This document shows positions 27,600 to 42,047 of a stretch of 64,000 bases of DNA, one piece after another. Under the pieces are notes generated by a model. That model had not been told where the DNA came from and did no database searches. It saw only the letters and a program-made list of their open reading frames with translations. This DNA comes from Escherichia phage vB_EcoM-Ro121c4YLVW, in sequence record NC_052654.1, one strand, 5' to 3'. Within the stretch, counting starts at the first letter, position 1. Each line of letters starts with the position of its first letter. The translations under genes and the position numbers were made by a program.

Positions 27600-27958
27600 T
27601 TCTCTCCTTCTACAGACTTCTGTTTAACATAAAAGTAAGCACCACGAGCAAGATACAAATCATGTTCAATATCGCTCACAGGAAAACCATCTGGATTTTT
27701 AAAACCGTCTTCTACAGCCAAAATGAGAGATCGTAAACTGATAGCTAACAACTCCATTTGATCTTGTAGTTTTCTATTTTCTGCATAAAGGTTTTTGCAT
27801 TTTTGTTCTGCATTTTTCCATTGTTCTAATGCATGATCATAGTTTCGCATAAGGATAGCTTTTTCTTGTTCACGTTTAAAAGTTTCTTCACAAATGAAAC
27901 CCGTGCCTAAACCAGTTTCTTCATCTTTGACAAACACTTCAACAAAATCTTTAGACAT
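27596..27958 (-). CDS. hypothetical coiled-coil protein
   Basis: Start at ATG after AGGAGATAA; about 120 aa. Confidence 0.45.
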   Translation of the reverse strand: MSKDFVEVFVKDEETGLGTGFICEETFKREQEKAILMRNYDHALEQWKNAEQKCKNLYAENRKLQDQMELLAISLRSLILAVEDGFKNPDGFPVSDIEHDLYLARGAYFYVKQKSVEGEK

Positions 27959-27959
27959 A

Positions 27960-28223
27960 TTATCTCCTATTTGCTTTTGGATACTCCCAACCCTCTGGGA
28001 GATCTTCTTTACACATCCACTCAAAAGGCCAGCGACAATAACTGTGCCACTTTCCATCGAGATACAAGCAATCTTCATCCACTGGTCCACAAGGGTTGAT
28101 AACTACAACACACCCTTTTGCTCGCCAATATTGAACTATTTCAGGGTAAAAACAAGAAACGTCGGTCCACTCCCAAATACGTTCATCATTCAAACGGTAT
28201 GCTGCTGGCAATGTCTCTTTCAT
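27960..28223 (-). CDS. hypothetical Trp/Cys-rich protein
   Basis: ORF track 87 aa. Confidence 0.4.
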   Translation of the reverse strand: MKETLPAAYRLNDERIWEWTDVSCFYPEIVQYWRAKGCVVVINPCGPVDEDCLYLDGKWHSYCRWPFEWMCKEDLPEGWEYPKANRR

Positions 28224-28227
28224 ATTA

Positions 28228-28674
28228 TTAAACCTCTGTCAAAGAGAAACGCCAATCCTTACTACTACCTACACCAAGGAAGATATAGTCTCCGGTACTA
28301 ACGGAATATCTCCAAGCGGGAATCCAATCAGGAATCTCTGGCTTATGGCTGTAGCCATAACGCTCGCCACTCGAATCTGTTGCAATATAATTAACAAATT
28401 CAGGAACCTCTAAAGTTTCACCTTGATACTCTACACGCTTGAAGCCATCTTCCACTTCTTTCTCACCTTCTACCAGAAGGGCAAGAAATTTGATGTGAGG
28501 GCAAGTGAAATCTTGTCCTGGATAACGTGAACGGATATCTGTTAACAATGCGACTACAGCATCCGATAACTCTTTATAATCCTCATATCTTACAAATGTG
28601 CCTTCTGTCGGATCATCAGGACACAAACGCCAAACATCGTTGCAGTTTACAGCGTAATGTCTCATTTTAGTCAT
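28228..28674 (-). CDS. hypothetical protein
   Basis: ORF track 148 aa. Confidence 0.5.
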   Translation of the reverse strand: MTKMRHYAVNCNDVWRLCPDDPTEGTFVRYEDYKELSDAVVALLTDIRSRYPGQDFTCPHIKFLALLVEGEKEVEDGFKRVEYQGETLEVPEFVNYIATDSSGERYGYSHKPEIPDWIPAWRYSVSTGDYIFLGVGSSKDWRFSLTEV

Positions 28675-28683
28675 AAATCCCCC

Positions 28684-29082
28684 TTATCGTTGCGTACAAT
28701 CAGCTTCTAGAGTAAGAACATTCGTTATTGTTTTATCATTTTTTAGAAATGCAAACCAAGCCAAAGTGTCTCGATACTCTGTGCGCATCATTACTACTTC
28801 AGTAGTGCCAATAAATTGTTGTGAACCGTACATAGCACTACCATCTTTACTTTTTTCTCCTGTGTATTGCAGAATGCCACTCATCAAAGCACCACCTGAA
28901 TTTTTAAGGATAAAGGAGTTATCTTTATTAATGACAACAGAAGCCATTTTCTTAGGACCAGAAATCACTTCACCTTTCAGATTTTTAACAACCACATCTG
29001 ACACACACTCATAAACTTGAGACGCATTTGCTGTTCCAAGTGATGCAACGAGTAGCAATAAACCTACAATGATCTTTTTCAT
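28684..29082 (-). CDS. secreted/periplasmic protein (signal peptide)
   Basis: MKKIIVGLLLLVASLGTANA-SQ signal-peptide-like N-terminus. Confidence 0.5.
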   Translation of the reverse strand: MKKIIVGLLLLVASLGTANASQVYECVSDVVVKNLKGEVISGPKKMASVVINKDNSFILKNSGGALMSGILQYTGEKSKDGSAMYGSQQFIGTTEVVMMRTEYRDTLAWFAFLKNDKTITNVLTLEADCTQR

Positions 29083-29177
29083 ATAAACTCTCCTCTTTAT
29101 TTACCCGACGCGCCCCTGTTGGGCGGAAAGGGTTGTACGCAAAATTTTTAGCTCCAATCGTCGGGTGTCCCGACTCC

Positions 29178-29384
29178 TTACGCTTTTAATGTTTTAACAG
29201 AATGACAAGCTTTGCAAACCATAACCGGAACAAGTTCATCTCCATTATCCGCATAAATCACTGTTTTCTTCATTCTGCCACCGCATGAACAATACTCTGT
29301 ATGATCCGCAGGAATATTAAATATTCCGTAATCACTTTCATACTGTTTCTTACATATGGACACTGCTTTCGTAAAACAAGACAT
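29178..29384 (-). CDS. small zinc-ribbon protein
   Basis: CSCGG...CKAC pairs; 68 aa. Confidence 0.4.
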   Translation of the reverse strand: MSCFTKAVSICKKQYESDYGIFNIPADHTEYCSCGGRMKKTVIYADNGDELVPVMVCKACHSVKTLKA

Positions 29385-29386
29385 GC

Positions 29387-29608
29387 CTACTCCGCAAGAA
29401 CCTTCACTTCGTCAGAGAAGAATACGTAATCACAACCTTCCCAAACATCTTCTTCAAACCACTCCCATCCCTCGACTTTGGACATTTCTTCTATCGTAAC
29501 AAAGAATGTTGTCATATCCTCACTAACAAGATGTGCTTCAACAACAAAAGGAATCTGAACATTCTCAAAACCAACATAACCCAATACATCACAAACTCTA
29601 ATTTTCAT
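29387..29608 (-). CDS. hypothetical protein (DYVFF pair, member 1)
   Basis: 73 aa; shares W..E.....EG.DYVFF motif with 32900-33130. Confidence 0.4.
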   Translation of the reverse strand: MKIRVCDVLGYVGFENVQIPFVVEAHLVSEDMTTFFVTIEEMSKVEGWEWFEEDVWEGCDYVFFSDEVKVLAE

Positions 29609-29609
29609 A

Positions 29610-29810
29610 TTATGCTCCTTTGTAGATTATGTTGGTGCGTTCACACTCTGCCACCAGCAAGCGATTAGCAATGTTGTCCATAGGAACATCAATCTCTACG
29701 CTCCAAGCGTTGATATACACTTCTTCAATCTTTGCTCCAAGCATTTGTGCGATCAGAGCAACAGCGCCAGCATACTCAAGTTTAATCTCAATTACCATTT
29801 TGCACCTCAA
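29610..29810 (-). CDS. hypothetical protein
   Basis: ORF track 66 aa. Confidence 0.4.
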   Translation of the reverse strand: MRCKMVIEIKLEYAGAVALIAQMLGAKIEEVYINAWSVEIDVPMDNIANRLLVAECERTNIIYKGA

Positions 29811-29812
29811 GG

Positions 29813-30013
29813 TTATTTGTCTTGCTTGTATCTTACAAGGCGATCACACTCCAGGTCAAGAAATTTCTCCGCATTTCGTTCATGTTTGAGCACAATACAT
29901 TGTTCTTTCCAGTCTGTAGCTCTTTGCTGCGCTGCTCCTGGGTCAAAATCCCAAAGCCATGCCGCGAAAAGAACAACCATAACAATTACCAAGAAACTAA
30001 ACACTATTGGCAT
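29813..30013 (-). CDS. small membrane protein
   Basis: Start at ATG after CAGGAGGA; one TM helix. Confidence 0.4.
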   Translation of the reverse strand: MPIVFSFLVIVMVVLFAAWLWDFDPGAAQQRATDWKEQCIVLKHERNAEKFLDLECDRLVRYKQDK

Positions 30014-30318
30014 TGCACATCCTCCTGTGTAGCATGATCTTTTACCCATTTTATACGGGCAGCATTCAAATGCAATAGCCCGTTTCTTTGTGCAAAATCA
30101 TATTTAAACCAGTCTCCGTCATCAAACGGGTATTCTTCAGACAATCCTGCTTCTCGAAATTGCATTTGCATTTCATAATTTAGGTCATCATAACCACCAG
30201 ACCAAAGATAGAGGCAACTGCACAAACCTTTATCGTGCCAGAAAGGATTATTATCTGGAGCACCAGCTAACAGCCAATTATGATAGGCTTGATAAAATTC
30301 TTTAAGTTCTTCTGACAT
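30004..30318 (-). CDS. paralog-family protein C
   Basis: EFYQAYHNWL...GLCSCL...YPFD...RIKWVKDH. Confidence 0.5.
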   Translation of the reverse strand: MSEELKEFYQAYHNWLLAGAPDNNPFWHDKGLCSCLYLWSGGYDDLNYEMQMQFREAGLSEEYPFDDGDWFKYDFAQRNGLLHLNAARIKWVKDHATQEDVQCQ

Positions 30319-30516
30319 TTAACCCCCTGTGTACAGTGTTGAAAGATACACAGCAAAAGCATTCTCGGCTGTTTTAACCTCCTCTTCAAGATCTTCACGC
30401 TCTGCTGGCGTTAGCGCATTTCGCACAGCAGCGTCTGCTTCTCGGATTTTTCTTACTAAACGTGAAACATCTTTCAGTTGTTGAAAAGTAGCCATAATCT
30501 TCCTCCTTTTAGTCAA
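30319..30516 (-). CDS. hypothetical protein
   Basis: ORF track 65 aa. Confidence 0.4.
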   Translation of the reverse strand: MTKRRKIMATFQQLKDVSRLVRKIREADAAVRNALTPAEREDLEEEVKTAENAFAVYLSTLYTGG

Positions 30517-30742
30517 ACCAGTTGTATTCGGAAGGGTAACGAGCGTAGTTTGGCTTGTACCCCAGTCTTTTCATCTTAACAGACATACGAGTGAAGCCAA
30601 AGGTTGTTTTGCCCTTAGACATAAACTTCTTCCCACTCTTCATTGGCTTCTTAGGGTTTTTGATCGTCTGGTGTAACGCTCGCGCAAGCCACAAAGTGTA
30701 TGCGCTCGGCACTTGATTAACTTTCATCTTGTTACCTTTCAT
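30509..30742 (-). CDS. small basic protein (possible nucleic-acid binding)
   Basis: Start at ATG after TGAGGAGG; Lys/Arg-rich, 77 aa. Confidence 0.4.
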   Translation of the reverse strand: MKGNKMKVNQVPSAYTLWLARALHQTIKNPKKPMKSGKKFMSKGKTTFGFTRMSVKMKRLGYKPNYARYPSEYNWFD

Positions 30743-30752
30743 CGAAACCTCC

Positions 30753-30980
30753 TCAGTGAACTTCGTGCCAAGTGCCAAACTCTTCTGCTGATACTTTAGG
30801 AACGGCATGAGTTTCTCGGTATTTGTTTAAAGCTTTCTCAATGGCTGTAGCAAAAACATCTTGTGATTTATAAGGCATATAATAAGAGCGTCCCATGTAT
30901 GCCACTGCATCACGTAATTCTTCTGCTTGCTCTTGTGTAACTGTCAATGTGATAGTAACCATTATTTCACCTCCGACCAA
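30753..30980 (-). CDS. hypothetical protein
   Basis: ORF track 75 aa. Confidence 0.4.
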   Translation of the reverse strand: MVGGEIMVTITLTVTQEQAEELRDAVAYMGRSYYMPYKSQDVFATAIEKALNKYRETHAVPKVSAEEFGTWHEVH

Positions 30981-31261
30981 TCAATAGTGATCCACTCGTA
31001 TGCCCCGTTCAGATCCATTTCTTTATAAACAATAAGCCCACGCTCACGAAGAATTGCTACTGCTTCATCCATCCACTTCACCTGATTGTAGATCTCCCCT
31101 GGGTGGGTAGGGGAATTATCCAGACCAAAATCAGATGGCGTGAAATTTCTTGAAGAGTTTCCCGCTCGTGCTTCAGCAAAACATGTCTCGATCACTTCTT
31201 CAACAGGGAAGTTGAAGGAAGCTTCTTTTGCAATACGGCGTAACTGTTCGGTCAGATTCAT
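30962..31261 (-). CDS. hypothetical protein
   Basis: ORF track 99 aa. Confidence 0.45.
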   Translation of the reverse strand: MNLTEQLRRIAKEASFNFPVEEVIETCFAEARAGNSSRNFTPSDFGLDNSPTHPGEIYNQVKWMDEAVAILRERGLIVYKEMDLNGAYEWITIDWSEVK

Positions 31262-31288
31262 TTTATTCTCCTTTCGTTGTGCGAAACA

Positions 31289-31726
31289 TTACAGCAGATC
31301 TAATGCTTTCAACTCTTCTTTCAATGATTCAGGCAGGTCACATTCAATGTCAATCAGAGATAACAAGTGACCAACAATGCCTTCCAGATGTTGATACTCA
31401 CTATAACTTATAAATTCAGAATTGTAAACAGAAACATCCTTAGTTTCTTTCACAACTTCCCCCGCAGACACGCACATAAAAAAGTTACGCTCTCCGCGAG
31501 CTAACAATATCTCCCAACTTCTGAACGGATACTGTCCAGCTTCAATAATATCTCCGCTGTCCAATAAGGTCAATGAGCAAACAGACCCTGATTCACTAAC
31601 ATCTTCGACGCGGAAACAAGACCCTTCAATCAAAGCTGCCATTTTGAAATTTTCATCAGAGATCATAGAGAAAGCTTCACATGCAGCTTTGCTTTTGAAA
31701 CAGTAAACAGCATTAATTTTAAACAT
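31289..31726 (-). CDS. hypothetical protein
   Basis: ORF track 145 aa. Confidence 0.5.
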   Translation of the reverse strand: MFKINAVYCFKSKAACEAFSMISDENFKMAALIEGSCFRVEDVSESGSVCSLTLLDSGDIIEAGQYPFRSWEILLARGERNFFMCVSAGEVVKETKDVSVYNSEFISYSEYQHLEGIVGHLLSLIDIECDLPESLKEELKALDLL

Positions 31727-31738
31727 AACATTCTCCTT

Positions 31739-32197
31739 TTAAACAAAAGATACGCCGATGGTAGCAACAACCAAACGTTTATAAACTTCAACCTCTTCTG
31801 TAGGATTAGCCATTTTATGCTCCGCTGCTTCTTTCAAAGCTTCTTCATAATTTTGAGATCCAGAAATACAGGTGTCACCAGTCATTACAACATACCACTC
31901 TTCTTTTGTTGTATCAACAGGTTCTTCTTGGGGTTTTCCACGACCACCACGAACACCACCGTCAACAAAATAATCTATATGAGCAGAATTGATTATGTAA
32001 CGATCCCCATCACCAGCAGTGATAATACCATCTCTCATACCTATTACAACCATTGACAAGATATTACCATTTGCATCAGTGCTCAACACCTCGAAAAAAT
32101 TCTCTCCAATGATAGCCGCAATACTGTTATCAAAGGTAGAATATAGTCGCATATAATCCTCATCCTGGAAACGGTAGACATGACCTTCTTTAAACAT
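31739..32197 (-). CDS. hypothetical protein
   Basis: ORF track 152 aa. Confidence 0.5.
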   Translation of the reverse strand: MFKEGHVYRFQDEDYMRLYSTFDNSIAAIIGENFFEVLSTDANGNILSMVVIGMRDGIITAGDGDRYIINSAHIDYFVDGGVRGGRGKPQEEPVDTTKEEWYVVMTGDTCISGSQNYEEALKEAAEHKMANPTEEVEVYKRLVVATIGVSFV

Positions 32198-32651
32198 TGC
32201 TCTCTCCTCCTAGTTCATCATACCATTTCAAAGCGTCTTTTGGAAGCATACCAAAATCTTCTTTTAGCTCTTTTTCAATCTCTTCTTGCATTTCCATCAG
32301 CATTTTCAATTGACGGACTTTTTTGTGCATAGCCACATTCCTTTCATTAAGGTTTGTCACTACATTATTTGCACGACTCGGTGGAAACGACAAAGGTTTC
32401 ACGGGAAGATAATCTTCGATATTATCTAGTGCGTTACGAAAATTATGATCCAAGAAACGCACATCTACACGATTGTAATCGGCAGCTACAACAGTGAACA
32501 CTTTAAACGGCACATTGGATAAAGTATGTTGCACACAGACAGTACCCATATTACCTTCAATTTTACTGGTAACTTCCAGCACACCTGTATGAGCACTAAC
32601 ATAATCGTGAACACATTGCACATAGGCTGCCAGTATAGTGAATTGTCTCAT
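32190..32651 (-). CDS. hypothetical protein
   Basis: ORF track 153 aa. Confidence 0.5.
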   Translation of the reverse strand: MRQFTILAAYVQCVHDYVSAHTGVLEVTSKIEGNMGTVCVQHTLSNVPFKVFTVVAADYNRVDVRFLDHNFRNALDNIEDYLPVKPLSFPPSRANNVVTNLNERNVAMHKKVRQLKMLMEMQEEIEKELKEDFGMLPKDALKWYDELGGESNV

Positions 32652-32896
32652 TTTCTACCTCCCCATAATGCTAACATTTTATTGAAAATGGAAACGCGTC
32701 GTGCGCGAGATGCCATATCATAATTCATTCTTTCCGTCTCTGCAAGAAATTGATCTACGGTAATCAACGCTTTTGTCTTCTCTTTCAGAGTTTGCATATT
32801 CATCCATTCACATTCAGAGTACCAATTATCGAAATACAAACTATCGAGAAGATCCATTGCTGCTTCATTCTGTTGTGGTGTGATCATTGCACACAA
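32648..32896 (-). CDS. hypothetical protein
   Basis: ORF track 82 aa. Confidence 0.4.
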   Translation of the reverse strand: MCAMITPQQNEAAMDLLDSLYFDNWYSECEWMNMQTLKEKTKALITVDQFLAETERMNYDMASRARRVSIFNKMLALWGGRK

Positions 32897-32899
32897 CCC

Positions 32900-33130
32900 T
32901 TAATAGACAATTTCATATTCGTGAGGAAAGAAAACATAATCTTCCCCTTCTCGTGCATCTATCTCGTCCCAAAACCATTCCTGCACTTCCATCATCTTCG
33001 AGAATCGCACATGAGCAAGCCCACTGTATTCCACCGTAGCTTCCAACACAAGTGGGAATTTTGCACGGGTAAGTCCTTTATAACCACCATCATTCTCAAT
33101 ACGAATTTTCATGCGTTTCATGTTATGCAT
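32900..33130 (-). CDS. hypothetical protein (DYVFF pair, member 2)
   Basis: 76 aa; W.WDEIDAREGEDYVFF. Confidence 0.4.
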   Translation of the reverse strand: MHNMKRMKIRIENDGGYKGLTRAKFPLVLEATVEYSGLAHVRFSKMMEVQEWFWDEIDAREGEDYVFFPHEYEIVY

Positions 33131-33332
33131 CCTTCAGACCCTTAATAAAGTAACGACCAACCGGATTCCCTCGGAAGTATTCGTTAATGAAATCGATAAC
33201 ACACGTTTCACTGCCTGTCACAACGGACGGCTTAAAGTTTTGGAATTCTACAGCTACACGGCTGGCTTTAGCCAGTGCTTGCACACGTGTAGGATCAGTC
33301 AAGAACATTGTGACAGTTTTCAAATTCTTCAT
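33123..33332 (-). CDS. hypothetical protein
   Basis: ORF track 69 aa. Confidence 0.4.
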   Translation of the reverse strand: MKNLKTVTMFLTDPTRVQALAKASRVAVEFQNFKPSVVTGSETCVIDFINEYFRGNPVGRYFIKGLKDA

Positions 33333-33381
33333 TTCATCTCCTCATTGGCTATCTGCTATGTCATCCATTATACAAACATCT

Positions 33382-33750
33382 TTATTCAATGCAAGCATTA
33401 TTTGCATCTTCAATGCGATCTTTCACCCATTGCACACGAAACTTGTTGGTATGACACGCTAAAGCTATACACTCTGAAAGGTAATCCATGCAATCTGCAT
33501 TGAACGGAAGATTGTAGTCCAGCCCTGCACATGTAAATTGTTTCCTCATTTCATATTTCAAACGGTCTAACAAATGATCACGCCATCTTCTATCTTCTTC
33601 TCTAGTTGTCTCACCAACAAAATCATCTACATAGTCTACCAGACAACCACATAAGCCACTCGTTGTGCGATTCATTGCAGGATAGTTGGCAATCCATGCT
33701 TTATAGAAGCGAAGCAATGTTGCACTACTCAACGGAATACTATTTGTCAT
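33382..33750 (-). CDS. paralog-family protein B
   Basis: RFYKAWI...GLCGCL...LPFN...RVQWVKDRI; start after AAGGAGAGAA. Confidence 0.5.
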   Translation of the reverse strand: MTNSIPLSSATLLRFYKAWIANYPAMNRTTSGLCGCLVDYVDDFVGETTREEDRRWRDHLLDRLKYEMRKQFTCAGLDYNLPFNADCMDYLSECIALACHTNKFRVQWVKDRIEDANNACIE

Positions 33751-34084
33751 TTTTCTCTCCTTCATAATCTTGAATTCTATCTAGCACCCATTGTATACGA
33801 TGTTTGTTTTTATGGCAAATATGTTTTTTATGTTCGAAGGTGTATTCCTCATAACCACCTTCATTAAACGGGAAATTGTAATCCAATCCTGCACCAATAA
33901 ACTGTGATTTCATCTCCTGTTGTAGACGAGGTAACAGTTCATCAGGATATGTTCCCTCTACATACTTAATCAAACATATGCACAAACCACTCGTTGTGTG
34001 ACCTTCTACCTCACCAGCAAGCCAAGCTTTGTAAAACTTCATTAGACGTAAACTGCTCAACGGAACATTTTTACTCTTTTGCAT
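33740..34084 (-). CDS. paralog-family protein A
   Basis: KFYKAWL...GLCICL...FPFN...RIQWVLDRI. Confidence 0.5.
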   Translation of the reverse strand: MQKSKNVPLSSLRLMKFYKAWLAGEVEGHTTSGLCICLIKYVEGTYPDELLPRLQQEMKSQFIGAGLDYNFPFNEGGYEEYTFEHKKHICHKNKHRIQWVLDRIQDYEGEKNDK

Positions 34085-34089
34085 GACAA

Positions 34090-35640
34090 TCTCCTCTCAT
34101 CGTTAGCCATCTTTCATGGCAATCATCAATCACCAACATCATACGATCAATCTTAGGGAATTACAATCGAATTATCATAGGGGATTCCTATCAATTATCC
34201 CATATATACCGATTATTTTTGACACCCCACTCTTGTATAAAAAGTAACCCAAAATATCTACGGGGAGAGATTATTTCGGGACACCCTGTTTCATAGCAAT
34301 CATGGCAAGAATATCTAATAGAATCAATATGATATGGCAAAAATCATGGCGCATACGTAAGAAGTGCTTAACGCGAATTTTCGGGCCGTCAGGTCCACGC
34401 AGCGACAATTCCCAAATATCATGCGAATGAGAATAATTATCATTCGTATTCAATGACTTATGCAAGGCTCATGCCAACATAGCGACAAGGTGGGCCACTT
34501 GATTATAAATCACACAAACACTTATTTATCAATGGTTTGGCAACTTCATCATATGACGGAACAATGTCAACTGATCCCGCTCATGACAAGCAGACTATTA
34601 TTTATATGAGAATGATTATTATTTAAACGTTTATTAACATATAAACTAAAATAAATCAAGAATTTTCTGATTTTATTTACGTTTAAGAGAAGGTGCTCAA
34701 CATATCGCTACGCGATAGTATTCGCCCCCAAAAGATTAGCCTTTATTTTCTTGTATGTTTATACACTGCGTGTACATCTATGTGCACACTATGCAACCTG
34801 TCGCTATTCGCTCATGTTGCTACGTGCAATTATTCATCTTGCTAATGATTTCATATTGTAACTATTACAATGACTATTGTTATTGCGCTAATGTTATGAT
34901 CTTGGTAATTACATATAATGCTAATAATAAGCCAGCGCAATAAGTGTAAGCGTCATTACGCTTGCAATTATTGCAAGCTACGCAGTAACAAGAAATAACC
35001 GTCACCGATGGTTATGATTGTTGGGGTGTAGTTGGCTTATTATTAGCTCGCTATGTGTCCGGCATAGCGTGCTAATGATGACTCTGTGAATGATTCGTTT
35101 TGTAATGATTTCATTCAGGCACTATTTTGCTAATAGTTATTATTTTAATGGTTTCGTTTGTTATTGTTCGTTAGTTGGTTGTTTTGTCGTGTTATCGTTA
35201 TCTTGCTTAGTATTCATCATGGTTTGATTGTTTGTCATTATCAATCATCTTGCTATTATTCCTTTGATTATGATTAGTTTGCTTATTGTTTTAGGTTGTT
35301 GGTTGGTTAGTTGTTGCGAACTATTATCAACATTATAGTTATGCACTTATATTGCATAGATAAACATGGATAGATGATAATGGTTATCATTGCACCAGAA
35401 AGGAGGTAAAAGGGTGTTTTTGATGGTTTGTTGTTGGTTGTTGATCGATTTTAACCGCTTTAAATGGCTCTCTAACAGCCTGTTACCCTGGGAGGTATGG
35501 TTATTCATTTAATGGTTGATTAGCTTGATACCACTATTTATTCAGTTTTGTTCTGTGTCGGTTTTCCATAGGCGGAATCTATCAACATTGTTCGGGCAAA
35601 AAGAAAGGGCGCTTGGTGCGCCCCTTGTTTTGTTGTCGAT
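34090..35640. other. about 1.5 kb non-coding region with strand-skewed composition, palindromes and Fur-box-like motifs
   Basis: No ATG ORF with RBS; T/G-rich top strand; palindrome at 34936-34975; motifs at 34421-34441 and 34601-34620. Confidence 0.5.
35606..35630. terminator. bidirectional terminator
   Basis: agggcgcttggtgcgccc hairpin flanked by A-run upstream and T-run downstream. Confidence 0.55.
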
Positions 35641-36059
35641 TATAACGCTTCATAGATTGAGTAGATCCGGTTTGCCAGGTCATTACGAAAGCGGAATTTT
35701 TCATCACGTTTAATCATCAGATCCTTAAAACCGCATTCTTTCAAGGCTTCATTAACTTTATGGCGGCAAACGTTCATATTATCCTGCGCGTCACCAATAA
35801 ACTTATTACTGTGATGCATTGCTTTGATCTCTTCCTCTAATACCAGGGCAACTACACGGACCGGATCAAGCTGATATGCGGTAACATCCATGCGGCATTG
35901 TAAACGGCTTTTAACATCGTTTACAGGATACACTGCAACCTCTTCCCCGTCAACGTTCACGATAACCAATTTACCATCGATTTCGAAGCCTTTGGCGGCG
36001 CTACCGTGACAAAAAGCGTTATCGAAGGAGTAAGCTGGATTATTTGATTTAATGTTCAT
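35640..36059 (-). CDS. hypothetical protein (first gene of small-gene array)
   Basis: ORF track 139 aa. Confidence 0.5.
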   Translation of the reverse strand: MNIKSNNPAYSFDNAFCHGSAAKGFEIDGKLVIVNVDGEEVAVYPVNDVKSRLQCRMDVTAYQLDPVRVVALVLEEEIKAMHHSNKFIGDAQDNMNVCRHKVNEALKECGFKDLMIKRDEKFRFRNDLANRIYSIYEAL

Positions 36060-36198
36060 GATGTTGTCCTTTGTTTCGTTTCGTTGTTTGCTGCCAGTAA
36101 GTTAAATATAATATAACGCCGATCCCCTGTCAATAGGGGATAGCGCATTATTTACATTTCTTTACGTTAAAGGGCGCTTAGTGCGCCCTTGTATAATC

Positions 36199-36567
36199 TT
36201 ACTTTGTGCTGTTGTAAACGTTATCGCGTTCAACCATCAGGGCAAGGCGGATCAGTTGATCAGTTGTATCGCTTAAGCTTTTAGGCCATGTTTTACTGTT
36301 CCAGCTATCAAGATTAGATTGAATATATGTATCAATGGCTTGATCCATGTTGTCAAACAAGTTTTCTTCTAAGCTCTCGGCTGTTTCACACTGGAAAGCA
36401 TTAGCCACACTATTAATCAGTAAGCAAGCCAGTAAATCAGCGTTACGCCAATTTTTACGGATAGTTTCATCTGTCAGATAACCAACGAGATTAACCTTTG
36501 CGCCAGTGGTGGACGTTGCGATCACTTCTTGCGCTTTTTCAACTGCTTTAATTGCTGATTTGCTCAT
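36199..36567 (-). CDS. hypothetical protein
   Basis: Start at ATG after AGAGGAAAATAAA; 122 aa. Confidence 0.45.
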   Translation of the reverse strand: MSKSAIKAVEKAQEVIATSTTGAKVNLVGYLTDETIRKNWRNADLLACLLINSVANAFQCETAESLEENLFDNMDQAIDTYIQSNLDSWNSKTWPKSLSDTTDQLIRLALMVERDNVYNSTK

Positions 36568-36819
36568 TTTATTTTCCTCTTTGTGGGCTTGCTGTATTGC
36601 TTGCCCTACGAGATAAATAATAATATAAGGGTGATCCGGTGTCAATAGGTAGAATTGTAAAGATTCGATAGTTTATCTCTTTGATGTTTTGTTGTTTGAT
36701 AGGTGTTAGCTATCAATATATAGCGGGGTCGTCCGGTGATTATCTTCCCTGTTGCCAGTGCCGCCCGTTCAATAAGCATAACAAAAAACAGGACAAAAAC
36801 AAGCCCTGTTTTGTAAAGA

Positions 36820-37023
36820 TTAGATGATCTGCATATCCTCCACGATAATTTCTAATTTCCAAACAAGATGATCTAAGCTCCCTGATAAAAATGATTCCGA
36901 TACATAACCGCCATCGGATACCGTAGCAAGGATCTCGCCATTTGCTTGCTCTTTGATTTGAACATCCAGGCGGTTAGCCTTTGCTTTATTCAGGACGGCG
37001 ATCAGGCGGTTAGCTGTAGTCAT
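36820..37023 (-). CDS. hypothetical small protein
   Basis: Start at ATG after GGAAGGAAA; upstream part of track ORF is the translated leader hairpin. Confidence 0.45.
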   Translation of the reverse strand: MTTANRLIAVLNKAKANRLDVQIKEQANGEILATVSDGGYVSESFLSGSLDHLVWKLEIIVEDMQII

Positions 37024-37040
37024 GGTGTTTCCTTCCAGTG

Positions 37041-37100
37041 GTGAGCGGCACCATTGCCGCCCTACAAAACACATCTTACACTATCCGGCACATTGTGCAA
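37041..37100 (-). promoter_or_regulatory. array promoter unit (TTGCAC-N16-TAAGAT, TAGGGCGG, hairpin GCGGCAATGGTGCCGC)
   Basis: Read on minus strand upstream of 36820-37023. Confidence 0.55.
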
Positions 37101-37106
37101 GCTATT

Positions 37107-37298
37107 TTAAATCTTATCGCCAATATAATCTGATCTGTTCTTCTCTGTCATGCGCTTTAATAATTCTTGCATATTGCTTATAGCTTGCAAGGTGTCTTCT
37201 TCCAGACTTGAATCAACATAATCAGGATCATTCTTCACCTTGCTATAGTTGTGATAGCGTAACGCTGCTAATACCTTTCTAACTTGTTCCACGTTCAT
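37107..37298 (-). CDS. hypothetical protein
   Basis: ORF track 63 aa. Confidence 0.4.
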   Translation of the reverse strand: MNVEQVRKVLAALRYHNYSKVKNDPDYVDSSLEEDTLQAISNMQELLKRMTEKNRSDYIGDKI

Positions 37299-37307
37299 AA
37301 TGTACCC

Positions 37308-37442
37308 TTAAAATAGTGTGCCGATGGAAGATAGCAGGTCACTAACAACTAAAACCAGATCTACTATCACATATCTAATCAGGAAGGGGATAAGCGCCAG
37401 CGTCGCTACTATGATCCCCATTGTGATGATCACCTTTCTCAT
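37308..37442 (-). CDS. 44-aa hydrophobic membrane peptide
   Basis: ATG 3 nt after upstream stop; no clear SD. Confidence 0.3.
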   Translation of the reverse strand: MRKVIITMGIIVATLALIPFLIRYVIVDLVLVVSDLLSSIGTLF

Positions 37443-37444
37443 CG

Positions 37445-37729
37445 TTAGCGGCTTACGTAGGCTTTACCGTTTACGGTCATCGGTATGGCTTCAAGGTCTG
37501 GATCTTCCTTAAGGTCGCGTGCAAGCTCACCGCAGCGGATACCCTCGAATCCGTGATATTCTGTTACACCGTCGTTAAATGTTTTAGCGGCAAGGCATAG
37601 GCGATAATTAACGCCGATCCGGTTTATTGCGTTGATATCGGTTAGCGTGATGGATTCTGGCAACTCATTAGCCAGTACAGGCGCGTTAATACCAACAACC
37701 AGGGCAACTACTGCGATCATCTTTTTCAT
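37445..37729 (-). CDS. secreted small protein (signal peptide)
   Basis: MKKMIAVVALVVGINAPVLA-NE; RBS AGGAAGAGGA. Confidence 0.5.
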   Translation of the reverse strand: MKKMIAVVALVVGINAPVLANELPESITLTDINAINRIGVNYRLCLAAKTFNDGVTEYHGFEGIRCGELARDLKEDPDLEAIPMTVNGKAYVSR

Positions 37730-37783
37730 GTGTCTATCCTCTTCCTATTGCGTTTAATGGGGCGTTACCGCCCCGCTTATGGT

Positions 37784-38020
37784 TTATTGATTGATGTTAT
37801 GATGAAAGTTATTTTCTTCAATAGCTTTTAAAATAAAAGCCGTGATCGCTTTCGTGTCTACTTGTTCGAACGTATCAGAATAAGCCCAATAATAATCATC
37901 CCCTACTTTCGGCGGGTAAACCTGGACAAGGAGATCGCCACCTGGTTGATCTATAAGCTCAACATGCAAGCCGGATGATTCAGCGGTTTTAACGGCGTTT
38001 AATACTGTTGCAATACTCAT
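37784..38020 (-). CDS. hypothetical protein
   Basis: ORF track 78 aa. Confidence 0.45.
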   Translation of the reverse strand: MSIATVLNAVKTAESSGLHVELIDQPGGDLLVQVYPPKVGDDYYWAYSDTFEQVDTKAITAFILKAIEENNFHHNINQ

Positions 38021-38064
38021 AATCTTTCCCTTTCTGATGTGGGGCGTTGCCGCCCCTTTGTTGA

Positions 38065-38364
38065 TTAGATCGCTGTTTCCAGTAGTTCGGCTAACGTCTT
38101 ACCGCCTGATAGTTGGTCTAACGTTTGCTCTTCTGGCAAGAAATTAGCTGATATTAATCCGACTTGATTTCCTTTGTGCCAATTAGCTTGACGGATGATT
38201 CCATCCTTTAAAGATTTTACCGCCATTGTGCAACCGTCGCCAAATGATTCATTTTTATGATCCATTACTTCATAAGCGCCCAGCTTGCTGCTGTTAGGCA
38301 CCATTAATGCGAATACATCACCAACAACCAGTTTTTCTACGGTAACAATAGCGATAGTTTCCAT
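38065..38364 (-). CDS. hypothetical protein
   Basis: ORF track 99 aa; RBS GAGGAAAG. Confidence 0.45.
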   Translation of the reverse strand: METIAIVTVEKLVVGDVFALMVPNSSKLGAYEVMDHKNESFGDGCTMAVKSLKDGIIRQANWHKGNQVGLISANFLPEEQTLDQLSGGKTLAELLETAI

Positions 38365-38382
38365 TTTACTTTCCTCATTATC

Positions 38383-38439
38383 GGCGGCACCATTGCCGCC
38401 CTACGTGGTAAATATTAGCACACTGGCGATCTGTGTCAA
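38383..38439 (-). promoter_or_regulatory. array promoter unit (TTGACA-N16-TAATAT, GTAGGGCGG, hairpin)
   Basis: ggcggcaccattgccgccctacgtggtaaatatta...tgtcaa on + strand. Confidence 0.6.
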
Positions 38440-38445
38440 TACTTT

Positions 38446-38832
38446 TTATTCAATATAAATCAAATTATCTTCACCAATGTAAGCCGACACGTTCGGCATA
38501 AACTTAGCTGCATTGGTTAGGCGGTTCGCCGTGTTAGTGGTGTATATTTCAGGGCGATCCCAAAAGCCTACGCCGTGACTGTTACGGGTAAAATGTAAAT
38601 CATTCCCGATCTGGTTGGCTGTTGCGCCGTCGCTCATTGCCTCAGAGATAGCGGCATTATTGGCATCACAAAACGCCGCCACGTCACGTATGATCCGCTG
38701 ATGGGCTTGATCTGAAAATTCATAATCAGTCATGTCATCTATAAAATTACCTTCATGATCCCTTGCGGATTCAGCAAAAATAAAGGCTTCTTTATAACCG
38801 TTGATGATTTCAATAATGATTTCTGTTTTCAT
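38446..38832 (-). CDS. hypothetical protein
   Basis: ORF track 128 aa. Confidence 0.45.
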   Translation of the reverse strand: MKTEIIIEIINGYKEAFIFAESARDHEGNFIDDMTDYEFSDQAHQRIIRDVAAFCDANNAAISEAMSDGATANQIGNDLHFTRNSHGVGFWDRPEIYTTNTANRLTNAAKFMPNVSAYIGEDNLIYIE

Positions 38833-39053
38833 GCTGTACGCTCGACAATAATAATGGTTTGCGGTATCTCGTTTTCTACTACTAATAAGGCTTTTTTCTG
38901 CGTGATAGATATTTTAACACGTTGTAAAGTAGCGGTAAAATCTTTCATTTCATTATGCGCGGATTTAGTGCAATGCCAGATCTCAGGCTTACCTATTTGC
39001 AAGCCGCGTAAAAATTCTGTTTTACCTGTCTTATTCGTGATCATTTGATTCAC
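38829..39053 (-). CDS. hypothetical protein
   Basis: ORF track 74 aa. Confidence 0.4.
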   Translation of the reverse strand: MNQMITNKTGKTEFLRGLQIGKPEIWHCTKSAHNEMKDFTATLQRVKISITQKKALLVVENEIPQTIIIVERTA

Positions 39054-39054
39054 C

Positions 39055-39159
39055 TTAACCGATACCGTGGGAAGATAGGATCATATTAGCCATAGTTGCA
39101 ACCACTCCAACCGATAACGCCAGGCCCACTATTACAACCGTGAAAATTTTCTCTAACAT
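39055..39159 (-). CDS. 34-aa hydrophobic membrane peptide
   Basis: Own promoter/hairpin unit upstream, RBS GAGGG; below ORF-track cutoff. Confidence 0.4.
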   Translation of the reverse strand: MLEKIFTVVIVGLALSVGVVATMANMILSSHGIG

Positions 39160-39426
39160 GATTCTACCCTCATTAATGGGCGTTGCCTTATTGCCCCGCC
39201 CTACGAAATACATTCTATCAGATAACAAATTATCGTCAAGATTTATTTTTTACTTCCCAAACGGAAAATTCGCTGCCTGTTGGGATCATCTTTTTAATCT
39301 TGTTTGCTGCCGCTACCAGGTCAACGGCTTGCACTGTAATAATATAACCAATTGTCGAGGCTGTTGCGTTGAAAGTTTTCATTATATTACCCTTTAATAC
39401 AGGCGGGATTAATCCCGCCTTGTTGA

Positions 39427-39597
39427 TTACTCTTCATCGTCGCCGTTATAGTATTCAATGCCATTTTCATCGGTTACGGTGATGTTAACGCCACCGATAG
39501 CAACACGATCACGGGCAAACGTCATGGCTTCATTTAAATCTTCAGACCAAAAAATATTGTGACCTTTGCGCGATACATAAAACATAGTCGGGATCAT
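39427..39597 (-). CDS. hypothetical small protein
   Basis: Start at ATG after AGAAGAGAAA; upstream part of track ORF is leader hairpin. Confidence 0.45.
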   Translation of the reverse strand: MIPTMFYVSRKGHNIFWSEDLNEAMTFARDRVAIGGVNITVTDENGIEYYNGDDEE

Positions 39598-39618
39598 GAT
39601 TTGTTTCTCTTCTGTTGT

Positions 39619-39681
39619 GAGCGGTGGACCATTCCGCCGCCCTATGTGGTAAACTTTACTACGTTGTTTGCGTGCTGTCAA
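39619..39681 (-). promoter_or_regulatory. array promoter unit (TTGACA-N17-TAAAGT, ATAGGGCGG, hairpin GGCGGAATGGTCCACCGC)
   Basis: Hairpin stem differs from other copies but stays self-complementary. Confidence 0.6.
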
Positions 39682-39682
39682 A

Positions 39683-39967
39683 TTATTTTTTAATGTTTTG
39701 CCCTACAAAATTAATCATTTCCTTAAGCTGTCTCTCTGTCATGATCGTACCTGGTAACTCTTCTTTAATTTCTTCCGGTAAATAAATATTACCGCGCCAG
39801 GTTAACAAACAACCGTTTTGATCTTCGCAGATAGAATAGGAAAACATCCACTCGCAATCATTTTCAAGCTCCCAAAAACACAAAAAGTCTTCTTTCCCTA
39901 AGTTTTCAACGGTTAAACATAATCCGCGACGTGCTGCATAATTAGTTAGGCTTTTTGTGATTTTCAT
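39683..39967 (-). CDS. hypothetical protein
   Basis: Start at internal ATG (MKITKS...), 94 aa. Confidence 0.45.
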   Translation of the reverse strand: MKITKSLTNYAARRGLCLTVENLGKEDFLCFWELENDCEWMFSYSICEDQNGCLLTWRGNIYLPEEIKEELPGTIMTERQLKEMINFVGQNIKK

Positions 39968-39986
39968 GATTTTTCTCTCTTCTTGT

Positions 39987-40044
39987 GAGCGGCACCATTG
40001 CCGCCCTACAAGATACATATTACCAGACTAAGCCGACTTGTCAA
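39987..40044 (-). promoter_or_regulatory. array promoter unit
   Basis: gagcggcaccattgccgccctacaagatacatatta...tgtcaa. Confidence 0.6.
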
Positions 40045-40165
40045 ACTATTTTTTCTTTTTCTTTGCTTCCAACCGTCTAAGGTTACGGCTTGACTTATTG
40101 CGCAAGGCGCTTAGATCGTCGTACCCTTTCCATGCTTGCATATCTTTCGGATTCATGTTATCCCC

Positions 40166-40327
40166 TTACTTGTTAGCCGGATTATATGCCAGGACCGCGC
40201 CGCTTGCTTTCACGCTTTCCGCTTCATAGTTGCGCAGATCGTTTTCTGTAAGGTTGAGCGCGATCACTTCCTCGATCTCAACGTCAGCGGCAAGGGCGAT
40301 CTCTTTGATAATGTCTGCTGTTTTCAT
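40166..40327 (-). CDS. hypothetical small protein
   Basis: Start at ATG after AAGGTG; 53 aa. Confidence 0.4.
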   Translation of the reverse strand: MKTADIIKEIALAADVEIEEVIALNLTENDLRNYEAESVKASGAVLAYNPANK

Positions 40328-40337
40328 AGTATGCACC

Positions 40338-40457
40338 TTATAAGATGATTGATAAGATAGTGACAACGAAAGCGATTATACTGATGGCAAATGTTATCTT
40401 TTTACCTTCGGATACTGCCGGATTTTTTGCCGTGTATTCTACTATGTACTTGCTCAT
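40338..40457 (-). CDS. 39-aa membrane peptide (C-terminal TM helix)
   Basis: Promoter unit upstream, RBS GAGAGGA; below ORF-track cutoff. Confidence 0.4.
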   Translation of the reverse strand: MSKYIVEYTAKNPAVSEGKKITFAISIIAFVVTILSIIL

Positions 40458-40480
40458 CGTGTAATCCTCTCATTTGCCTT

Positions 40481-40540
40481 GGGAACTATTCCCGCCGCCC
40501 TATGAATTAAATATACACTATCTCAAAAAGATTGCAAGCC
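40481..40540 (-). promoter_or_regulatory. array promoter unit (hairpin variant GGGAATAGTTCCC)
   Basis: gggaactattcccgccgccctatgaatt...tgcaag. Confidence 0.55.
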
Positions 40541-40555
40541 TTTTTCTGAATTATT

Positions 40556-40840
40556 TTATGCAGTAAACAAACCATCATTTACAACGGCGGCGATGATCTC
40601 CCGTGCCATTGATTCAGGGAAAGGGGCGCTATAGTCCTGGCTTGTCTCGTCGGTGTCAGTGATACAATGATAAGCTAACGAGTAAAAGCCTTTACTAACT
40701 GTTTTCAGTGAGATGATGATCACTCGGTCAAGCTTATTGGTGAATGTTGCCGTTAATGTGTTACCCTCCTGCGTCATATTGGACAAGTAAGCGGCATTAT
40801 TAATCAGGGAAAACATTAGCACGGTGTTAGCTTTACTCAT
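40556..40840 (-). CDS. hypothetical protein
   Basis: Start at internal ATG after GAGGATG; 94 aa. Confidence 0.45.
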   Translation of the reverse strand: MSKANTVLMFSLINNAAYLSNMTQEGNTLTATFTNKLDRVIIISLKTVSKGFYSLAYHCITDTDETSQDYSAPFPESMAREIIAAVVNDGLFTA

Positions 40841-40856
40841 GATTGCATCCTCAAAG

Positions 40857-40916
40857 GGGCGCGGCACCATTGCCGCCCTACACGATAACTATAACACAAT
40901 ATAAAACAGGATCAAC
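40857..40916 (-). promoter_or_regulatory. array promoter unit
   Basis: gcgcggcaccattgccgccctacacgat...gatcaa. Confidence 0.55.
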
Positions 40917-41124
40917 CTTTATTTTTCCACGGTGTCAGTTTGTTAATCATTGGTGATAAATAGCGTTTACCAACGTAAAACAGTACGCCAACTGATGCAA
41001 CGGCGGCGATCTCATGTAAGGAGGAAGGTCGCGCGGTGTCATAGTAGGTACCAATAATAGCAATAGCGGCTACTGCGGCAATGTCTGTAATAATTTTTTC
41101 TTGTTTTGTTGTGATAGTGGTCAT
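40912..41124 (-). CDS. small membrane protein (two hydrophobic segments)
   Basis: ORF track 70 aa. Confidence 0.45.
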   Translation of the reverse strand: MTTITTKQEKIITDIAAVAAIAIIGTYYDTARPSSLHEIAAVASVGVLFYVGKRYLSPMINKLTPWKNKG

Positions 41125-41145
41125 AATGTTTTTCTCTTTTATGTG

Positions 41146-41203
41146 GTCGGGAACTATTCCCGCCCTACGTGATACATCTTATCATACTTGGTTATGCTGT
41201 CAA
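41146..41203 (-). promoter_or_regulatory. array promoter unit (TTGACA-N16-TAAGAT)
   Basis: ggtcgggaactattcccgccctacgtgatacatctta...tgtcaa. Confidence 0.6.
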
Positions 41204-41209
41204 CCGTTT

Positions 41210-41395
41210 TTAAAGATATTTTATGCTAATGACGTTTTCAGGTTTAACCTTGTTGTGATGTGCATCAACATAGATCAAACCATCGTCAGAAAAGCCCAGG
41301 ATCACGCCCTGCGCGATAAAACCGTACGCATCACGGTAACGCACGGCTATTTTTAATGTTGCGTTGTAGGCTGTTTTAAGCTCGTTTAAAGTCAT
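41210..41395 (-). CDS. hypothetical protein
   Basis: ORF track 61 aa. Confidence 0.4.
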   Translation of the reverse strand: MTLNELKTAYNATLKIAVRYRDAYGFIAQGVILGFSDDGLIYVDAHHNKVKPENVISIKYL

Positions 41396-41450
41396 TTTTG
41401 TTTATCCTCTACATGTAAAAAGAAAGGGCGCTTGATGCGCCCTTGTTATG

Positions 41451-41597
41451 TTAATCCTCTAAATCCATCCAATTATATTTGTCACTCTTCCCGCGCTTTG
41501 TTTTATTGCGCTTGTCGCCTTTGCGGATCACTTCCTCGTTCCAGGCCTTGCGGATCTTGGAAGATTGAATTTTTTCTGCGCGATTAGATGTATTCAT
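41451..41597 (-). CDS. 48-aa basic protein
   Basis: Promoter/hairpin variant upstream, RBS GAGGAAACAAA; below ORF-track cutoff. Confidence 0.4.
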   Translation of the reverse strand: MNTSNRAEKIQSSKIRKAWNEEVIRKGDKRNKTKRGKSDKYNWMDLED

Positions 41598-41676
41598 TTT
41601 GTTTCCTCTTCATATGAGCGGCACCATTGCCGCTATATTGTTAATTTAAACTGTTTTGTAAAATTGTCAAGGTTTA

Positions 41677-42030
41677 TCATTCATAAGAGCAAGCAAGGAT
41701 CACGCCTGCAATATAAAGCCAATAATTTTCCCTTTCTCGTTGGATTTTATCATCGCTGCTATTCTCTTTAATGTATCCCCAGGATGTTAACAGGCGATCA
41801 ATTTCCCAATATTCGAAAGCGATATTGATATCTGATGGCAAGCCTTGTAACCATGATGCAAGTGCTTTAACAATACTATAATTAAAACGTGATTGGTTAT
41901 CAGGGTACCAGTACTCGGAATTAAAACGGCGCATCAATTCCGCGATCTTCTCTTTTTCGGTTGTAATACCGTAATCATTAAAATCGATAGCGGCAAGGAT
42001 GTACTCTTTAATTGCATTTTGTGCTTTCAT
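41677..42030 (-). CDS. hypothetical protein
   Basis: ORF track 117 aa. Confidence 0.5.
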   Translation of the reverse strand: MKAQNAIKEYILAAIDFNDYGITTEKEKIAELMRRFNSEYWYPDNQSRFNYSIVKALASWLQGLPSDINIAFEYWEIDRLLTSWGYIKENSSDDKIQRERENYWLYIAGVILACSYE

Positions 42031-42047
42031 GGTCTTTCTCTCTTTTT

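Follow-up and report, generated by a model that had tools for sequence, protein, structure and literature searches.

Probable genome-end control region with a short direct terminal repeat, Fur-box-like sites and a conserved folded element in a phAPEC8-like coliphage

The 64,000-nucleotide (nt) stretch of DNA analysed here (the window; sequence record NC_052654.1) belongs to Escherichia phage vB_EcoM-Ro121c4YLVW, a phAPEC8-like coliphage of the genus Phapecoctavirus (E. coli myoviruses, subfamily Stephanstirmvirinae). Two minus-strand genes, at 33740-34084 (a homologue of phAPEC8 gp18) and at 35640-36059 (on the gp17 side), enclose a non-coding interval at 34085-35639. The counterpart in phAPEC8 is the unannotated gap between gp17 and gp18, and both genes, like all of their neighbours, lie on the minus strand of the window. 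On the basis of sequence comparisons with related phages, we consider it very probable that this interval serves as the control region at the genome ends (the concatemer junction) of a myovirus whose direct terminal repeats are short. The repeat itself spans 328 base pairs (bp) at 34370-34697, is present once in the assembly, and is expected at both ends of the virion DNA.

The original prediction held that this region contains no credible open reading frame (ORF) and is non-coding, and our analysis bears this out. All ORFs in the interval are 65 amino acids or shorter, and a PHROG search with the longest of them returned no matches. In an alignment of 10 Phapecoctavirus genomes, the variable columns lack a 3-base periodicity, and 29 of the 35 distinct insertions and deletions (indels) are not multiples of three, leaving six that are. 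Thus, the signs of a protein-coding gene, namely a frame kept in relatives, codon-phase substitutions and indels in threes, are absent from 34085-35639. The ORF that had been set aside at 34271-34465 does begin with TTG and does cross a palindrome (34421-34449). A conserved protein-coding gene, the finding that had been named as fatal to the prediction, was sought in PHROGs and in the alignment of relatives, and no such gene is present there.

Comparison with related phages, which had been suggested as a check, revealed that the region is retained as a gene-free gap. A megablast search with the 1,551-bp stretch matched 74 phage records, of which 50 span at least 80% of it at 92-98% identity, nearly all from Phapecoctavirus. 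The same gap is left empty in phAPEC8, ASO2A and other carefully annotated records, and a gene-free gap of 1.5-2 kilobases (kb) is also found in Justusliebigvirus, in Klebsiella phages of the Stephanstirmvirinae and in Av-05. A scan of the window for tRNA and tmRNA genes found none, and E. coli genomes have no homology to 34698-35640. The proteins encoded on either side matched only families of unknown function in PHROGs and Pfam, and therefore give no clue to a binding protein.

The assignment as a genome end draws on close relatives whose records terminate here. Mt1B1_P17 and Schickermooser (NC_052662 and NC_048196) carry repeats of 328 bp and 329 bp, respectively, each of which is 100% identical at the two ends of its record, and these repeats map to positions 34370 (or 34369)-34697 of the window. 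The window is 98% identical to Schickermooser over 34370-34697, and the relatives with repeats are 95-98% identical to the window. The same sequence is therefore found at both genome ends in close relatives, and is assigned to both ends in this isolate by homology. Such repeats are known biology for the group: a 328-bp terminal repeat has been published for Schickermooser (Korf et al., PMC6563267), and the literature describes short direct terminal repeats for BME3 (342 bp), for FKP3 (317 bp) and for the subfamily generally. LL12, which belongs to the rV5 group, likewise has a terminal repeat, of about 459 bp, in non-coding DNA flanked by convergent transcripts, and rV5 itself has a 2.6-kb ‘non-coding’ box. 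In a more sensitive search, many GenBank records proved to start or stop within the region, and more than 10 open there, at inconsistent points. The single copy that is read through in the window is what would be seen at a concatemer junction or in a circularised assembly.

The repeat has defined boundaries that are conserved across relatives, and both carry the core GTGCT/YAAC (the slash marks the boundary here and below), in the form AAGAAGTGCTT/AACGCGAATTTTC on the left and AAGAGAAGGTGCT/CAACAT on the right. This core is also present in other genera. The left cut-site motif, ACGTAAGAAGTGCTT/AACGCGAA (34356-34378, plus strand), brackets the start of the repeat at 34370 (or 34369) as given by the record ends of Mt1B1_P17 and Schickermooser, and a homologous motif, GAGGTGCTT/AACGCGATTTTC, is found in BME3, FKP3, Klebsiella phages and metagenome lineages. 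On the other side, a right-end block, AATAAATCAAGAATTTTCTGATTTTATTTACGTTTAAGAGAAGGTGCT/CAACAT (34651-34703, plus strand), includes a −10-like AAGAAT and the core GTGCT/CAAC, with the repeat ending at 34697. The boundaries of BME3, a member of another genus (Justusliebigvirus) whose ends were determined independently, are homologous (AGAGGTGCTT/AACGCG and AGTAGGCT/CAACAA). Left GTGCTT/AACGCG and right G(T)GCT/CAAC motifs are present in all 17 lineages that could be oriented, including Klebsiella phages and metagenome contigs. A packaging site, one of the roles originally put forward for this DNA, therefore appears to be essentially the right one, embodied in a 328-bp repeat with a cut-site motif common to its two boundaries.

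Several considerations weigh against this assignment. The ends of this particular isolate are taken from relatives that are 95-98% identical, and the rV5 paper described the rV5 genome as circularly permuted. The two boundary motifs are direct rather than inverted repeats, and hence nicks on opposite strands are not explained by the motifs alone. Recognition of GTGCTYAAC or GCTAAT by terminase, and of the boxes described below by Fur, is only predicted. In addition, the records of FKP3 and BME3 hold extra repeat copies, such that the published repeat lengths and positions are not clean and the two records cannot be used at face value. Specifically, the BME3 record (PP239276) includes the terminal repeat as well as a duplication of 788 bp, and in the FKP3 record (PP895363) the repeat occupies both 1-317 and 501-817 and is offset from the homologous GTGCTT/AACGCG boundary. 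These extra copies are probably artefacts of assembly or re-ordering.

Immediately to the right of the repeat is a small hairpin, TATCGC-tac-GCGATA (34703-34717, plus strand), followed by the C-run CGCCCCC (34723-34729). Among the lineages compared, a small hairpin followed by a C-run is always found 6-10 bases to the right of the right boundary. In relatives, the hairpin sequence is swapped at the same place for CCGCC-ata-GGCGG, GCCCAC-ttc-GTGGGC, ATAACCCT-tagc-AGGGTTAT and others, and given that the sequences differ between lineages, it is the shape that is kept. Some lineages have 2-3 tandem copies of a module composed of GTGCTCAAC, the hairpin and the C-run.

The hairpin gives way to a variable spacer (34730-34907, plus strand) that has accumulated many indels and includes (T)GCTAAT at 34841 and 34887. 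The reiteration of GCTAAT noted at the outset is genuine, since five copies are present within 34841-35134 where 0.28 would be expected, and since the motif recurs on the same strand in every related lineage (2-9 copies per locus versus roughly 0.2-0.3 expected; 56 copies in total in about 9.5 kb of homologous sequence). The early promoters carry TGCTAATAT, and we considered whether GCTAAT might likewise belong to an extended −10 element. The copies here lack the T at −7, and thus they are probably not promoters. The hairpin and C-run module, in one to three copies, and the GCTAAT motifs all reside on one side of the repeat, and by analogy with cosB of lambda this could be the recognition side of a packaging site (cosB- or pac-like).

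A recombination boundary had also been suggested, and this is true only weakly, insofar as the region contains mosaic breakpoints. Window positions 33601-33737 and 34052-34237 are 94-99% identical to muut, which belongs to another genus (L003, 1340-1476 and 1463-1647), and the rest of the muut junction flank is about 70% identical. Phages of the phiWec group exhibit 89-95% identity to the window to the right of the repeat and 58-72% to the left. These shifts in identity indicate that mosaic breakpoints cluster at the genome end. Among the matching records are four named as ‘Campylobacter phage’ (B15, A110a, C3 and A145; MG0656xx), of which B15 is 95% identical to the region and the others about 72%. 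They belong to Phapecoctavirus or Justusliebigvirus, and the label of C. jejuni as their host looks doubtful.

The most elaborate feature of the right flank is a four-helix element on the plus strand at 34908-35087, with a core of approximately 150 nt (34920-35070). The proposed secondary structure consists of a first pairing element (P1; 34920-34934 paired with 35033-35047) that encloses P2 (34937-34974) and P3 (34977-35032), followed by P4 (35049-35069). The imperfect palindrome reported earlier at 34936-34975 is real, and corresponds to P2 of this larger conserved structure. For 34900-35100, the minimum free energy is −81 kcal/mol on the plus strand (z = −7.1) versus −56.5 on the minus strand. 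RNAalifold identified 15 compensatory pairs among eight sequences from three clades, and a covariance model located the element in 28 loci. Covariation was assessed in a MAFFT alignment of 24 distinct sequences that was not fitted to the structure. Across 61 pairs, 94% of cells are paired, versus 25-52% when the partners are slid, and 17 pairs change on both sides; none of 500 shuffles reached the observed values. Thus, the fold is conserved with compensatory changes, as is expected of a structured RNA.

Within the paired positions, G·T combinations occupy 143 cells and A·C combinations only two, which argues that the structure is selected on the T/G-rich plus strand only. This excludes a symmetric DNA cruciform, and leaves either an RNA or the plus strand as single-stranded DNA. 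The recommended covariance-model search for known structured RNA families matched no Rfam family: there were no hits at gathering thresholds in the whole 64 kb, and only chance-level matches of at most 23 bits in 33900-35800 at E-values up to 10. Our own model scored 14 bits in Av-05, which is not significant. Among 27 pattern matches in metagenomes, the element was found in only nine, and most of the 27 were chance matches to the palindromic pattern.

A second set of conserved features resembles binding sites for the host iron regulator Fur. Members of a repeat family, ATGAGAATRATTATCATT, occur at 34427, 34606 and 35374 and agree with GATAATGATAATCATTATC, the consensus for E. coli Fur, in 14-15 of its 19 positions. 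Cluster 1 (34413-34462) includes the 29-bp palindrome at 34421-34449 and has matches of 15/19 and 14/19 to GATAATGATAATCATTATC that are 6 bp apart. Its 19-mer at 34426-34444 is identical in Justusliebigvirus, and its flanks, CAAATATCAATG...CATTCAATAACTTA, are conserved in all lineages. Site 2 (ATGAGAATGATTATTATT, 34603-34626) is also inside the repeat, about 180 bp from cluster 1, and most lineages have a Fur-like site at this position (up to 17/19 in Justusliebigvirus; none at ≥14/19 in the lineage L047). Site 3 (35376-35394, 15/19) overlaps a promoter-like sequence on the plus strand, TTGCAT-18-GATAAT (35352-35394), in which the TTGCAT ahead of the −10-like GATAAT is conserved. Other lineages have two boxes about 58 bp apart at this position, and even Av-05, from the Vequintavirinae, has the site.

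Four Fur-like clusters of at least 14/19 occur in 1.55 kb, where dinucleotide shuffles predict 0.22, and none of 1000 shuffles reached this number. Sites of 14-17/19 are found at the same three places in most lineages, namely phiWec, Justusliebigvirus, Klebsiella phages and four metagenome lineages. Two of these places fall within the repeat, one some 55 bp away from the left cut and the other some 75-90 bp away from the right cut, and the third, which holds one box or the pair 58 bp apart, is about 230 bp before the terminator described below. The sequences diverge between lineages yet remain Fur-like. Fur boxes are characterised by a match to the 19-bp consensus, or by arrays of at least three NATWAT hexamers, in overlapping sites 3 or 6 bp apart. 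The sites here match the consensus and overlap at a 6-bp offset, and genuine Fur clusters are known to consist of overlapping sites offset by 6 bp (PMC2189734). The host Fur protein probably binds the boxes, in the role of a regulator or of an architectural host factor. A literature search on Fur boxes in phages found nothing relevant.

Elsewhere in the window, at 47400-47500 on the minus strand, there are two very strong Fur-like boxes of up to 16/19 (AAATGATAATCATTCTCATTT and GCAAATGATAATGATTCGCATTT) immediately ahead of the start of the gene homologous to phAPEC8 gp257. They are separated by 58 bp, which is also the spacing of the paired boxes in the junction flank of other lineages. The boxes stand between A-rich imperfect 67-bp repeats on the preceding side and a GC-rich stretch on the following side, and the DNA at about 46800-47958, in which the boxes lie, is gene-poor.

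The right edge of the region is formed by a conserved block (..GATACCaCtATTTATTCAGTTTTGTTCTGTG..ATAGG..CTATCA..GGCAAAAAGAAA; 35520-35603) and an intrinsic terminator (35604-35630). The block is 73-79% identical in Justusliebigvirus, Klebsiella phages and Av-05, and has no conserved secondary structure; RNAalifold detected none beyond the terminator in the last 260 nt or so. The terminator, which is annotated in the phAPEC8, ASO2A and Schickermooser records, ends the upstream operon of the gp17 homologue on the minus strand, and its hairpin can also be read on the plus strand. It had been described as bidirectional. Although the hairpin is indeed found on both strands, a good T-tract is conserved across lineages on the minus side only, which indicates that its main job is to end the gp17 operon. 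A near-identical terminator hairpin is reused within the early-gene array, at 35598-35628 and 41417-41452 of the window and at 8068-8091 and 12991-13016 of L001.

With these features in place, a different account of the right flank can be weighed, namely that 34698-35630 is mainly the gene for a plus-strand non-coding RNA that is antisense to all of its neighbours, has the four-helix element as its core and depends on Fur and iron for its expression. Transcription would start in or just after the repeat, at the 35352-35394 promoter, or at both, and would end at the bidirectional hairpin. The covariation in four helices, the preference for G·T that selects the plus strand over a symmetric double-stranded cruciform, and a plus-strand fold that is 24 kcal/mol more stable than its minus-strand counterpart all agree with this account, as do the Fur-like boxes placed over −10-like hexamers (TTGCAT-18-GATAAT), the skew of G over C on the would-be RNA strand and the conservation, as far as Av-05, of the block just upstream of the plus-strand hairpin. 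However, a search of 14 lineages found no sigma-70 promoter at a fixed distance ahead of P1, no terminator directly follows P4, and the T-tract past the hairpin on the plus strand is poor in most lineages. Moreover, the 260 nt ahead of the hairpin have no conserved fold (z = −0.44), a literature search for transcriptomes of these phages found nothing relevant, and single-stranded plus-strand DNA would explain the covariation equally well. We therefore regard a dedicated RNA gene as a tentative possibility, and one that is compatible with a genome-end function. The long structured non-coding RNA originally envisaged is partly supported, through the covarying element of about 150 nt at 34920-35070 on the T/G-rich strand; in the remaining 500 nt or so, no conserved fold was found.

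A still more speculative proposal joins these elements, such that in phi92/phAPEC8-like phages, and partly in rV5-like ones, the genome end would be wired to host Fur through the boxes in the repeat and at the flank promoter, with the flank yielding an uncatalogued structured plus-strand RNA or a folded single strand for end replication or packaging. We consider this coupling rather doubtful. If true, the iron status of the host would govern either the maturation of a virulent phage genome or a non-coding RNA made early or late.

Beyond the four-helix element, the plus strand enters a C-depleted, T/G-rich spacer (35088-35340) with reiterated GTTGGTT-type motifs, which accounts for the extreme compositional skew that first drew attention to this DNA. 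The skew had been placed at 34700-35450. It is real, but it lies further to the right: it is strong at about 34950-35600 (GC skew +0.19 to +0.30, AT skew −0.24 to −0.36) and weak at 34700-34950. At 35088-35375, the plus strand comprises 49% T, 19% G, 22% A and 10% C. From the folded element to the third Fur-like site, the spacer defies alignment across genera, yet its depletion in C (5-12% C on the plus strand) is kept in all lineages. GGTT occurs six times and AACC not at all in six of eight lineages sampled, and neither is present in two Klebsiella-phage lineages. The reiterated motif is specific to each lineage, for example GTTGGTT, present three times here, and AGGTTAGAT, of which muut has four copies spaced about 100 bp apart.

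This composition invites the suggestion, also made originally, that the right flank is a replication origin, at which a plus-strand transcript would prime through an R-loop (as in ColE1 or T4 oriF) or the folded plus strand would itself act as a priming signal, with the reiterated motifs as iterons. A non-template strand that is strongly depleted in C downstream of a structured domain in all lineages, motifs reiterated in lineage-specific forms (such as those of muut and of this phage), structure specific to one strand, and the statement in the rV5 paper that these phages have no known origin speak for such a function. These points are all circumstantial. DnaA boxes and GATC are not enriched (one DnaA-like box with one mismatch, versus about 0.6 expected), there is no adjacent initiator gene, and the flanking proteins belong to no known family. 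A cumulative skew analysis had been recommended as a check, and GC skew was considered as an origin marker, but within the window it tracks gene orientation only: its sign changes solely at the switches of gene orientation near 18 kb and 54 kb, and there is no flip at the junction. Accordingly, positive support for an origin was not obtained, and we judge it to be unlikely. Across the minus-strand genes on either side, GC skew is about twice as strong at 18000-34000 (−0.13 to −0.25) as at 36000-48000 (−0.03 to −0.12).

The same spacer can be viewed from the other strand as a transcription insulator. Read-through RNA made on the minus strand would be untranslated, G-poor (C>G) and weakly structured, and would load Rho, such that operon transcription is kept from the repeat. 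This would fit the depletion of G on the minus strand (5-12% G, C>G), which is kept in all lineages though the sequence is not, the weaker minus-strand fold, and the location of the spacer directly downstream of the conserved minus-strand terminator. However, the minus strand is rich in A rather than in C (only 14-24% C), and an insulator leaves unexplained why the plus strand has a covarying structure, why Fur boxes are present and why 35520-35603 is conserved. We judge an insulator improbable, much as an origin is. Finally, the notion that small protein-coding genes were missed, such as a 32-amino-acid hydrophobic peptide at 35414-35512 with the look of a type I toxin (with the strong Shine-Dalgarno sequence AAAGGAGGT 6 nt ahead of its GTG at 35414) or the up to eight small ORFs annotated in the gap in the ETEC-TG and EP57 records, is extremely improbable, given that the start codons are missing from phiWec phages and from the equivalent place in other genera, that ETEC-TG, phiWec188, phiWec179 and Schickermooser carry an in-frame TAG (the loss of the start and the gain of a stop being our reason to reject the peptide), and that the periodicity, indel and PHROG results given above speak for a non-coding region.

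On the opposite side of the repeat, 34085-34369 is a region that separates the repeat from the first gene at this end, the minus-strand gp18 homologue, and it is predicted to hold the promoter and leader of that gene. It carries an extended −10-like TGgGATAAT (34202 to 34194, minus strand) and a 24-bp tandem repeat (34150-34199), and its portion at 34085-34260 is 90% identical even in muut, from another genus. The ‘array’ to which the region had been said to form the left flank is made up of a 21-nt stem-loop, GTAGGGCGGCAATGGTGCCGC, which occurs nine times on the minus strand at 37045-46771. Each copy is located downstream of a sigma-70-type promoter (TTGACA ... TGCTAATAT) of a small early gene, and because of this placement the copies look like 5′-leader hairpins of early transcription units. 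In the phAPEC8 record they are labelled as phage promoters (PHIRE).

Returning to the genome-end interpretation that we favour, the elements described above can be assembled into a working model. One repeat copy would lie between genome units in the concatemer, and a packaging nuclease would recognise the core GTGCT/YAAC at both repeat boundaries, with the right site backed by the hairpin and C-run module and by the (T)GCTAAT array to guide recognition. Once the two boundaries were cut and the intervening 328 bp copied, each genome end would have a full repeat. The first gene would receive its promoter and leader from the flank on the gp18 side (34085-34369), and the other flank (34698-35603, about 900 bp) would act as a gene-free buffer bounded by the terminator of the upstream operon. 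It is this terminator that would bar transcription from the junction, and the G-poor spacer on the minus strand may assist it. The Fur-like clusters, the four-helix element and the C-depleted spacer are further conserved cis elements. For Fur and the folded element, the data are compatible with a Fur-controlled non-coding RNA, with a function in priming or as an origin, and with an architectural role of the host factor.

The terminal repeat and the gene-free gap are already published for relatives. In the literature that we searched, the boundary motif, the shape-conserved hairpin module, the Fur-like clusters, the folded element and the reiteration of GCTAAT ahead of a C-depleted spacer appear to be undescribed. 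The assignment explains a gap that is left blank or filled with spurious ORFs in the genomes of therapeutic coliphage and Klebsiella phage candidates, and it offers a checkable rule for placing the genome start (GTGCTT/AACGCG ... GTGCT/CAAC), in a group where two records carry duplicated repeat copies. For those who engineer these phages, it implies that the junction must stay intact. Two leads also emerge, namely a strongly covarying fold outside Rfam and clusters of Fur boxes at fixed positions in two phage subfamilies. Should both prove real, they would connect the genome ends of a virulent phage to iron sensing by the host, a link that would be new.

Among known systems, the short repeats of the Stephanstirmvirinae and Vequintavirinae (those of Schickermooser, BME3 and FKP3, the 459-bp repeat of LL12 and the rV5 box) are the same element in the same gene-free gap, although the publications on these phages, within the literature searched, give only the repeat length or the ORF-free gap and make no mention of a boundary motif, hairpin module, Fur boxes or fold. 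The phage sites resemble the Fur-repressed promoters of E. coli (ryhB, iucA and fhuF) in their matches of 14-17/19, their overlap at a 6-bp offset and the placement of some of them over −10-like hexamers. They differ in that they lie in the terminal repeat and gene-free flank of a virulent phage rather than before iron-uptake genes. The transcript-primed origins of ColE1 (RNA II) and T4 (oriF and oriG) likewise have a structured 5′ domain followed by a non-template stretch with more G than C, but there is no sequence or structural homology between these and the flank described here, for which a promoter, an R-loop and initiation are only hypothesised.

Two classical genome ends offer closer parallels in organisation. 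The T7 junction reportedly contains a 160-bp repeat flanked by arrays of short repeats, and duplication of the repeat is said to be linked to a hairpin. The two junctions would thus share a short exact repeat present once per junction, adjoining reiterated motifs, an inverted repeat near one boundary and a gene-free setting with transcription signals. There is no sequence similarity between them, however, and the phage studied here is a myovirus that uses host RNA polymerase, has a repeat twice as long with Fur-like palindromes, and possesses a large covarying four-helix element to which T7 has no counterpart. The lambda cos site is composed of the cut site cosN, the terminase-binding repeats of cosB and a site for the host protein IHF, and generates 12-nt cohesive ends. 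Instead of cohesive ends of this kind, the junction described here would generate 328-bp direct repeats, and the putative host protein is Fur rather than IHF. Nevertheless, both combine a cut site with a motif array on one side and a nearby site for a host DNA-binding protein, and by analogy with lambda, the flank that carries the motif array would be the one that is packaged first.

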